36,971 nt of DNA from a virus (taxonomy: Duplodnaviria > Heunggongvirae > Uroviricota > Caudoviricetes). Shown in pieces: positions 13,289-14,725 of the stretch. A program made the position numbers and the translations under genes. How positions within the stretch are numbered: position 1 is the stretch's first letter; every line of letters starts with the position of its first letter. The notes under the pieces are model-generated. The model saw nothing but the letters and a program-made list of their open reading frames with translations. It had not been told where the DNA came from and made no database searches. Where the stretch lies: the IMG/VR virus record IMGVR_UViG_2711768012_000020; one strand, 5' to 3'.

Positions 13289-13492
13289 ATGCTAAAACAG
13301 CAAGATATGACAGAAACCGCCGCCGCAGTCCTTCATTTCTTACCTGCTGACAAGTGGGTAACGCCACGCATGATGACGAGAACTACCGGAGTAAGCGAAG
13401 CCCGGTGCCAGTTAATACTGACTCAGTTAGTTCTGGCGGGTCTGGCGAAGGATAACGGCGGGTACGGGAATAAATTCAGACGCTGCCAGTAA
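13289..13492 (+). CDS. Small HTH-like protein (67 aa) upstream of a DNA methyltransferase
   Basis: ATG at 13289 with AAGGGA RBS; putative HTH VTPRMMTRTTGVSEARCQLILTQLVLAGLA; function unknown. Confidence 0.4.
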   Translation: MLKQQDMTETAAAVLHFLPADKWVTPRMMTRTTGVSEARCQLILTQLVLAGLAKDNGGYGNKFRRCQ

Positions 13493-13642
13493 TGGCGGTT
13501 TCCTGCTGTGAAAATGGGCGGCTGGTGGGTGTTGGTAGCACCTGCCAGCCATTCGCTCATGCTTACTGGTCACAAGCGAACCACGGCCCACTGCTTTAGC
13601 GCAAAAGCAGAGTGAGCCTACCAGAGTTACGCTTACTGATCC

Positions 13643-14695
13643 ATGAAAAATACTGTAAAAATAAACAGTGTTGATTTAATCAACGCTGATTGCCTGCATT
13701 TTATTCAGTCCCTGCCTGATGATTCCATTGACCTGATTGTTACCGATCCGCCTTACTTCAAGGTGAAACCCAACGGTTGGGACAATCAGTGGAAAGGGGA
13801 CGAAGATTACCTTAAGTGGCTGGACCACTGTCTGGCCCAGTTCTGGCGGGTGTTGAAACCTGCCGGAAGCCTTTACCTGTTCTGTGGGCATCGCCTGGCA
13901 TCTGATATTGAGATCATGATGCGTGAACGTTTCAACGTGCTTAACCATATCATCTGGGCGAAGCCGTCCGGACGTTGGAATGGGTGTAATAAAGAAAGTC
14001 TGCGCGCATATTTTCCTGCCACAGAGCGCGTTCTGTTTGCTGAACATTACCAGGGGCCATATCGCGGCAAAAGTGACGGCTATGCGGCAAAAGAAAGGGA
14101 ACTCAAACAGCACATAATGGCACCGCTGATATCGTATTTCAGGGATGCTCGTGCCGAACTGGGTATAACGGCAAAACAAATTGCCGAAGCCACAGGTAAG
14201 AAAAATATGGTTTCCCACTGGTTTGGTGCCAGTCAGTGGCAGTTGCCGAATGAGGCTGACTATCGGAAGTTACAGGCACTGTTTTCCCGTATAGCGGCAG
14301 AGAAGTTTCAGGAACAACAACTGGAACAACCACACCACCAGCTGGTGGCATCTTATGATTCACTGAATCGTAAATATTCTGAATTGCTGGATGAGTTTAA
14401 ATCTCTCCGGCGCTATTTCTCCGTATCAGTCTCCGTGCCTTATACCGATGTCTGGATGCATAAACCCGTTCAGTTCTACCCGGGGAAACATCCGTGTGAG
14501 AAACCGGCGGATATGCTCAGGCAAATAATCAATGCCAGTAGTCGACCAGGTGATCTGGTTGCTGATTTTTTTATGGGATCCGGTTCCACAATAAAAGCAG
14601 CAATGGCGCTGGGGCGTCGGGCCTTAGGTGTTGAGCTTGAGTCAGAGCGGTTTAATCAGACAGTGAAAGAGATAAACGAGCTGGTGGGGAAATAA
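13643..14695 (+). CDS. DNA methyltransferase, DPPY motif (likely N6-adenine, beta-class order)
   Basis: 350 aa; catalytic motif IVTDPPYF near the N-terminus and AdoMet-binding FxGxG (DFFMGSGST) near the C-terminus; no adjacent restriction endonuclease gene is apparent. Confidence 0.8.
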
Positions 14696-14701
14696 TCTGG
14701 T

Positions 14702-14725
14702 GGCCACGTCAGGTGGCCTTTTTAT
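14702..14725 (+). terminator. Hairpin plus T-run downstream of the methyltransferase gene
   Basis: ggccac-gtcag-gtggcc followed by TTTTTA. Confidence 0.4.

Follow-up and report, generated by a model that had tools for sequence, protein, structure and literature searches.

A conserved structured leader RNA and a small winged-helix gene precede an M.EcoGII-family adenine methyltransferase gene in lambdoid prophages

The virus sequence IMGVR_UViG_2711768012_000020, 36,971 nucleotides (nt) long and referred to as a whole as the window, is by type a lambdoid prophage like mEp460, cdtI and Ayreon. Between its genes for the antiterminator Q and the holin, the plus strand carries an intrinsic terminator (13143..13170), a gene for a 67-residue winged-helix protein (13289..13492), a conserved structured leader RNA of 136 nt (13507..13642), a gene for a 350-residue DNA methyltransferase (13643..14695) and a second intrinsic terminator just before the holin (14702..14726). 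Records of the phages Ayreon and mEp460 label the gene pair "hypothetical protein" and "DNA methylase", with the small coding sequence having the same 204 nt. An earlier description made from the window's letters (the sequence-only reading) was mostly ordinary and partly mis-framed, since its subject is an annotated gene pair with a known enzyme family; it missed that the enzyme belongs to the M.EcoGII family and that the whole spacer of about 150 nt between the two genes is structured. The enzyme family is known, and the leader RNA and its linkage to the small gene appear to be undescribed.

The methyltransferase is a beta-class N6-adenine enzyme, as had been proposed from its DPPY motif. It matches Pfam PF01555 at E = 2e-42 over residues 29-341, with DPPY at residues 35-38 (nt 13745-13756) and FMGSG at residues 310-314 (nt 14570-14584). 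The order of DPPY, target-recognition region and FMGSG is that of the beta class, to which its Protein Data Bank relatives (M.RsrI, M.MboIIA and CcrM) all belong. Identity to M.EcoGII is 81% over the full length (281/349 residues), a figure that is approximate because the M.EcoGII sequence came from a machine-read copy of Supplementary Table S1 of PMC11551740. Identity is 89% (310/348 residues) to Anc291, a reconstructed ancestor that is an active and largely non-specific methyltransferase, and the more distant SUPREM ancestor is likewise largely non-specific (PMC11551740). M.EcoGII and M.EcoGI are prophage methyltransferases of E. coli O104:H4 C227-11. M.EcoGII methylates adenine in any DNA context and in RNA also (Murray et al. 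2018, PMC5778455), is unexpressed in the lysogen, and gives slow-growing, unstable clones when expressed constitutively (PMC5778455). Homologues about 93% similar to M.EcoGI/M.EcoGII in other Shiga toxin-producing E. coli (STEC) strains appear in a published methylome table with the predicted specificity "nonspecific".

On these identities, the window enzyme is best filed as a new member of the known, characterised M.EcoGII family. It shares with M.EcoGII as well as with M.EcoGI the beta class, a length of 349-350 residues, the order of DPPY, target-recognition domain and FxGxG, and carriage by a prophage, and it differs from M.EcoGII in 19% of its residues. The likeness extends upstream, in that loci whose methyltransferase has the N-terminus MLNTVKISSCELINADCLEFIRS (e.g., L016) have the same leader and a 65-residue winged-helix gene; the published M.EcoGII work mentions neither an upstream small gene nor a leader RNA. 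The window gene is solitary, flanked by terminators and without a called sigma-70 promoter, and by analogy with M.EcoGII its silence in the lysogen is expected. No endonuclease was found among the open reading frames (ORFs) between Q and the holin, in agreement with the sequence-only reading, and the anti-restriction role suggested there is plausible by homology to the M.EcoGII family and from published work. Because the enzyme family is non-specific, the methylome of a lysogen would show no new motif even if the gene were functional.

The small ORF starts with the ATG at 13289, behind the ribosome binding site AAGGGA, and ends with the stop codon at 13490-13492. Its product matches PHROG 331 (phrog_331, unknown function) at E = 5e-26, and searches of Pfam, NCBIfam and PADLOC returned no name above threshold. 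We found 150 homologues, of which NCBI calls the 63-residue class "TrmB family". The ORF is a real gene, since variability is highest at third codon positions (0.206 versus 0.128 and 0.114) and the frame is kept in nearly all copies. An AlphaFold2 model built from a 19-sequence alignment (predicted local distance difference test score, pLDDT, 87) is a minimal winged helix of the order H-H-H-b-b, with helices at residues 4-17, 26-33 and 37-49 and strands at 53-55 and 63-65. The "HTH-like ORF" of the sequence-only reading encodes a conserved protein of helix-turn-helix type. Invariant in the close family are the N-terminal MLKQQDMTETA and, in helix 3, RCQLILTQL.AGL; identity falls to about 50% in residues 12-38 and the wing, against 93% for the adjoining methyltransferase.

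Foldseek matched the model to generic winged helices only (ADAR1 Zalpha, IclR, MarR, TrmBL2, SelB and poxvirus E3-like proteins, at 10-25% identity), and weak Pfam matches to TrmB, DprA_WH and MarR occur in 12-16 of the 19 relatives. Likeness to the Zalpha domains of ADAR1, E3L and PKZ, to the N-terminal domains of TrmB, MarR and IclR, and to SelB is at the level of fold, with 10-18% sequence identity. The Zalpha domain of ADAR1 superposes with a template-modelling (TM) score of 0.85 and a root-mean-square deviation of 1.1 Å over 64 residues. The Zalpha signature consists of two conserved helix 3 residues, Asn173 and Tyr177, and of Trp195 from the wing; in an alignment by eye these positions fall on Gln41, Thr45 and Phe63. 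We therefore rejected a Zalpha identity; with the signature residues absent, the match is one of size and fold only. The protein has two Cys and no CxxC pairs, so that it is not a Com-type Cys4 zinc ribbon (PF10122).

A conserved motif lies on the plus strand 5' of the small gene (13230..13266) and reads CTTGCTG, 13 variable bases, CAGAGTTA, then GTATGTCA. It stands approximately 25-60 nt from the gene, is kept from E. coli to Proteus and Plesiomonas while its flanks diverge, occurs once in the window versus 0.01 times expected by chance, and is absent where the small gene is absent. A sigma-70 scan and inspection by eye gave no convincing sigma-70 or sigma-54 promoter in it; it could be a weak or activator-dependent promoter, an operator or an element of the 5' untranslated region. 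The related sequence TTGTATGTC occurs just 3' of the putative pR', at 12436-12446. At the other end of the gene, sequence and folding place a hairpin, P0, over the stop codon (13483..13498, plus strand) with a U-rich run next to it. P0 may be a weak terminator; where the small gene is lacking, a terminator hairpin occupies the position of P0.

The spacer 3' of P0 is, judged from its pattern of conservation, a conserved structured RNA. We aligned 93 distinct leaders. The leader contains AAUGGGCG (13513-20), hairpin A (13520-50; stem 13520-31 / 13539-50) with six doubly changed pairs, hairpin B (13552-80; stem 13552-61 / 13571-80) and hairpin C (13585-13618; stem 13585-97 / 13604-18), both with compensatory changes, and a start-proximal strand that contains UGAUC (13630-41). 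The pair 13554-13578 in hairpin B, for example, occurs as CG, UA, AU and UG. In the three-hairpin structure 13 pairs are changed on both sides, compared to 7.9 expected from shuffling, and none of 500 shuffles reached 13. Pairing over the leader holds in 82-90% of cells versus 30-45% when the partners are slid; for the three-hairpin structure these values are 82% and 30-41%. The hairpin noticed earlier at 13591-13610 is the upper stem (13592-97 / 13604-09) of hairpin C. The repeated GCTTACTG noticed with it is indeed present twice, at 13561-68 and 13631-38, but is not conserved as a repeat: the first copy, situated in the hairpin B loop, is not kept among relatives, and the second, in the start-proximal strand, is largely GCTTAYTG.

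Very divergent leaders (L233, L247, L255, L270 and L282) have other stem sequences and the same hairpins in per-sequence folds, and UGGGCG and GCCCA are invariant in 24/24 divergent sequences. Per-sequence folds were used for this comparison in place of MAFFT and RNAalifold, which recovered nothing but the invariant UGGGC/GCCCA stem because the stems were misaligned. Insertions and deletions of one or two bases, together with the pattern of change, argue against a coding function of the leader. Rfam 15 has no family for it at the gathering threshold; with E relaxed to 10 the window still gave no relevant match, and six related loci gave no match to the leader at E up to 1. ARAGORN found no tRNA or tmRNA in the spacer, such as occur in Stx phages. 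Literature searches with leader sequence strings returned nothing relevant, the upstream elements are not described in the papers searched, and the methyltransferase goes unmentioned in a published paper on the pR' region. Another conserved stretch, GCCUUGAGUACC.GAGACCC ... GGAGAGGAAGC, lies 5' of the methyltransferase at L271 (1165-1225) and also at L277 and L288. It stands before the leader in some distant loci and in the leader's place in others, and may be a second leader type; an Rfam scan of L271, the sole one of the three scanned, gave no match to it.

The methyltransferase AUG has no Shine-Dalgarno sequence, and the invariant UGAUC stands just 5' of it. The 3' end of 16S rRNA is GAUCACCUCCUUA, in which GAUCA is complementary to UGAUC, and UGAUC may thus act as a weak ribosome binding site. 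Hairpin B cannot coexist with any of three further helices. The helix UGUGA/UCACA is 99.8% paired; AUGGGC/GCUCAU is 99.5% paired with one-sided changes only; and a long-range interrupted helix, in which 13568-72 pairs with 13637-41 and 13574-78 with 13630-34, covers positions -13 to -2, is 92.7% paired and has three doubly changed pairs. The last replaces a pairing between AAGCGAAC and GUUACGCUU that the single-sequence minimum-free-energy fold had suggested and that proved only partly conserved. Two alternative folds, open and closed with respect to the start, have equal predicted energy in the window leader (-65.7 versus -65.0 kcal/mol), 80/93 leaders favor the closed one, and UGAUCYAUG is predicted to be mostly paired (mean unpaired probability 0.32). 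The alignment demonstrates that competing predicted pairings are conserved in the leader; from them we infer translational gating.

Two observations concern the same start region. Within methyltransferase codons 4-9 (13652-13670), ACUG(U) and (A)CAGU can pair as a small hairpin; in 78 distinct methyltransferase sequences ACT-GT is invariant and C-AGT nearly so, despite available synonymous codons, which suggests a constraint at the RNA level just 3' of the AUG. In addition, the invariant UGAUC includes a GATC (Dam) site at 13637-13640, and the prophage has its own Dam-family enzyme.

Small gene, leader and methyltransferase travel together. When one genome per species was searched with the small protein, 23 loci were obtained, from genera that include Mangrovibacter, Plesiomonas, Proteus, Kluyvera, Citrobacter, Salmonella, Klebsiella, Buttiauxella and Scandinavium. 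An M.EcoGII-like methyltransferase lies 3' of the small gene in 21 of them, always with a spacer of 142-152 nt; one of the two exceptions is a contig end and the other a deletion remnant. Since it recurs with a near-constant spacer, the arrangement is beyond chance. In viral contigs, 146 copies of the leader were picked up by a pattern scan. The methyltransferase follows in all 137 that have enough downstream sequence, and the small gene precedes 125/135, the other ten standing directly after a terminator, the end of Q or another gene. Metagenome loci fetched by the methyltransferase alone contain the leader in 79/80 cases, the exception being broken by an insertion sequence. Scanning metagenomes with a single methyltransferase protein gave close relatives only; the addition of distant methyltransferases, down to 40% identity, brought the set to 285 distinct contexts. 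The leader is detectable in 263 of these and the small-gene family in 222-239. The order of the three elements persists from E. coli out to clades at just 55% methyltransferase identity, and the small proteins of the distant clades are homologous to the window family (hhalign probability 95.6%, E = 1e-8). The small protein is a co-conserved accessory.

Individual loci show decay and duplication of the cassette. L188 has a sequence like an insertion-sequence end in place of the leader and first methyltransferase codons (~2980), the small gene of L004 (6001-6070) is cut to 22 residues by a premature stop, L025 (6153-6267) is a remnant in which a partial small gene and leader persist and the methyltransferase is missing, and L095 has two leader copies 3 kb apart.

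Both cassette boundaries come from a terminator scan and coincide with annotation in phage Ayreon. A terminator occupies the place of 13143-13170 in nearly all diverse loci compared, and megablast matches of the cassette mostly start there (query position 44). No good promoter was found within the cassette, where the sigma-70 scan calls none. Related loci always have Q or DUF968 on the upstream side and lysis genes on the downstream side. Over the segment 13100-14760, identity is 99.3-99.5% with phages Ayreon and mEp460, about 99% with the cdtI phage and about 90% with each of fifteen Stx2c-converting phages; the segment is matched in 1482 of 5426 complete E. coli genomes. The terminators at 12467-12492 (tR'-like, after Q) and 13143-13170 (after a lipoprotein gene, at the start of most cassette matches) are nearly identical, reading AACCCGCC[G/A]CTGAGCGGGTTTTTTGT, and may be recombination joints between cassettes.

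Phage Mu provides a precedent for a small gene before such an enzyme. Com is the translational activator of Mu mom, and in Mu-like prophages homologues of com stand before alpha-class non-specific adenine methyltransferases (Drozdz et al. 2012, PMC3299994). Among distant relatives of the window enzyme, an ORF of 38-42 residues with four Cys lies directly 5' of the methyltransferase in 7 contexts, and its best Pfam match is Zn_ribbon_Com (34.3 bits at L293, above the cut-off of 22.9; L271 and L280 are below it). At these Com-like loci the GGAGG of the methyltransferase is partly enclosed in a stem. The suggestion that Com replaces the winged-helix gene was rejected, as L271 carries both. Mu com-mom and the window cassette, as proposed here, have in common a late, host-toxic, adenine-modifying anti-restriction enzyme behind a small gene and a structured leader in which the translation start is hidden, and some distant relatives of the methyltransferase add the Com-like zinc ribbon directly upstream. 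They differ in that the window protein is a winged helix without the Cys4 zinc ribbon, encoded 150 nt upstream and not overlapping; Mom is unrelated to the window enzyme and the Hia5-type methyltransferases are alpha-class, and activation by the window protein is hypothetical. Tight translational control of promiscuous adenine-modifying enzymes is, by this analogy, a recurring solution.

We propose, with a probability of roughly 0.6, that the locus is a self-contained, terminator-bounded anti-restriction cassette of the late operon, with Q antitermination as one gate and a translation-controlling leader as the other. Inserted there in the order of terminator, small winged-helix gene, leader, methyltransferase and terminator, it would supply an enzyme that methylates adenine in any context, so that late progeny DNA would be broadly protected from restriction in the next host. 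Because the enzyme is harmful to the cell, it would be held off at two levels. At the level of transcription, only Q-modified polymerase from pR' would read the cassette, as the flanking terminators, the lack of a called promoter and the published silence in lysogens suggest. At the level of translation, hairpins A, B and C would form in the open fold and leave the UGAUC stretch free. In the closed fold, which is predicted to be usually more stable, AUGGGC would pair with GCUCAU, and the 3' arm of hairpin B thereby freed (GGUCAC..AAGCG) would pair with CGCUU..UGAUC and hide the ribosome binding site of the methyltransferase. The leader probably keeps the toxic enzyme off until late in infection. 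The winged-helix protein most likely acts on the leader or its DNA and would set the timing of enzyme synthesis, as Com does for mom, either as an activator or as a repressor.

Several findings weigh against parts of this proposal. Blocking AAUGGGCG in silico scarcely frees the ribosome binding site (0.32 to 0.35), helices P1 and P2 have one-sided changes only, and covariation cannot choose among the competing pairings because UGGGCG and GCCCA are invariant. A distant clade with L233-type leaders has neither UGAUC nor the long-range helix, and the start-hiding part of the mechanism is therefore not universal. The small gene is absent from about 10% of the loci that keep leader and methyltransferase, and distant clades have about 100 nt and a strong terminator between small gene and leader; Com there accompanies the small gene and is no substitute for it. 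A residue count by hand puts the net charge of the 63-residue class near zero, which is unusual for an RNA-binding protein. The promoter-like motif at 13230-13266 could give expression of the small gene independent of Q. Non-specific methylation by the window enzyme, finally, is inferred from 81-89% identity.

It is possible, though we hold this only tentatively, that the leader represents a new class of cis-regulatory RNA for promiscuous phage adenine methyltransferases, a bistable switch opened late by a factor acting in trans. That factor might be the winged-helix protein as an RNA-binding activator and non-homologous analogue of Com, the methyltransferase itself, or a metabolite. A metabolite also underlies a different account, in which the leader would be a ligand-sensing riboswitch (e.g., for S-adenosylmethionine, SAM, or S-adenosylhomocysteine, SAH) that matches enzyme synthesis to the cofactor, and the small protein would be unrelated. 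The invariant unpaired motifs, the multi-helix junction and the exclusive folds that touch the ribosome binding site would suit such an RNA, as would the heavy use of SAM by the enzyme and the persistence of the leader without the small gene. This account nevertheless has a slim chance, given that no Rfam riboswitch matched even at E = 10 and that, to our knowledge, none of the known SAM riboswitch classes is used in Enterobacterales. Almost as improbable is a role of the leader in RNA processing, stability or transcription elongation, as a tRNA-like RNase P / RNase E site or a put-like element. The UGGGC/GCCCA stem closes two hairpins and looks acceptor-like, hairpin P0 with its U-run lies 5' of the leader, and the window also has a C4 RNA, the C4 of phages P1 and P7 being matured by RNase P. 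ARAGORN's negative result, the lack of a U-run after hairpins A to C, and compensatory changes that reach the stretch adjacent to the AUG argue otherwise, and antitermination is already given by Q.

The small protein invites two other explanations. The sequence-only reading likened it to the controller proteins of restriction-modification systems, which would make the pair a remnant of such a system that lacks its endonuclease. A small gene of DNA-binding type directly 5' of a methyltransferase gene is what the window shares with the C proteins of type II systems, and the motif 5' of the small gene has partial dyad symmetry. The resemblance goes no further: the protein is a winged helix and not an Xre-type helix-turn-helix (no HTH_3 or HTH_31 match even at E = 1), and the window has no C-box, no endonuclease to control and a phage late-operon context. 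Neither an endonuclease nor a remnant of one appears in any of about 370 related loci, where lysis genes are always downstream, and the enzyme family is one of known solitary phage methyltransferases. We regard a C-protein-type controller as highly improbable. It is less far-fetched, if still unlikely, that the small protein is not a regulator of the methyltransferase and has a separate late or lysogenic function, such as anti-defense against restriction dependent on N6-methyladenine (m6A). It has its own conserved upstream motif, its gene stands just after a terminator, its middle and wing diverge fast relative to the methyltransferase, about 10% of loci dispense with it, and the 63-residue class, counted by hand, is not basic. 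Synteny kept to clades with a 55%-identical methyltransferase, the invariant helix 3 in the close family and the lack of a PADLOC match speak against such a separate function. As for the enzyme, it is very unlikely to be sequence-specific in the way M.EcoGII is not. The differing 19% of residues do include the target-recognition region (~160-237), but M.EcoGII and Anc291 bracket the enzyme, the more distant SUPREM ancestor is largely non-specific, and the STEC homologues of the methylome table are predicted to be nonspecific.

M.EcoGII is a widely used reagent, in MadID and in other chromatin and RNA methylation tools, and the literature searched on it does not describe its native control by phages. 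Roughly one in four complete E. coli genomes carries the cassette, with the late regions of Stx2c and cdt phages among its locations. If the proposed gated cassette is correct, the leader RNA and its winged-helix partner would account for the safe carriage of a lethal, non-specific methyltransferase. They would also provide an RNA family that Rfam 15 lacks and a compact natural off-switch for the expression of toxic enzymes.

The genes around the cassette follow the order DUF968/HNH (10599-11594), Q (11566-12360, PF03589), a lipoprotein (12640-13065), the 67-residue ORF, the methyltransferase, a P21-type holin (14763-14978), DUF1327, lysozyme and Rz. The predicted lipoprotein, of 141 residues, has a signal peptide and an LVGC lipobox, belongs to PHROG 4748 (unknown function) and has no Pfam match; its gene lies between two terminators in the late leader and looks like a moron. 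A Dam-family methyltransferase at 8406-9059 (Pfam PF05869, E = 1e-45) is the second methyltransferase of the prophage, which agrees with the Dam-like enzyme read from the sequence at 8406, and a PerC-like ORF overlaps the start of its gene (region 7912-8406). The region 9056-9382 holds an ORF of 108 residues with a LexA-type DNA-binding domain only, and genes for RusA and KilA-N follow. Rfam matches above the gathering threshold to isrK (6395-6471) and C4 antisense RNA (6496-6583) suggest an antisense immunity or anti-repressor module of the P1/P7 or Gifsy type in the prophage. At the E. albertii locus L016, two tRNA genes and three copies of STnc100 (two of them above the Rfam gathering score) stand between methyltransferase and lysis genes (6390-7473), a layout that resembles the late regions of Stx phages.

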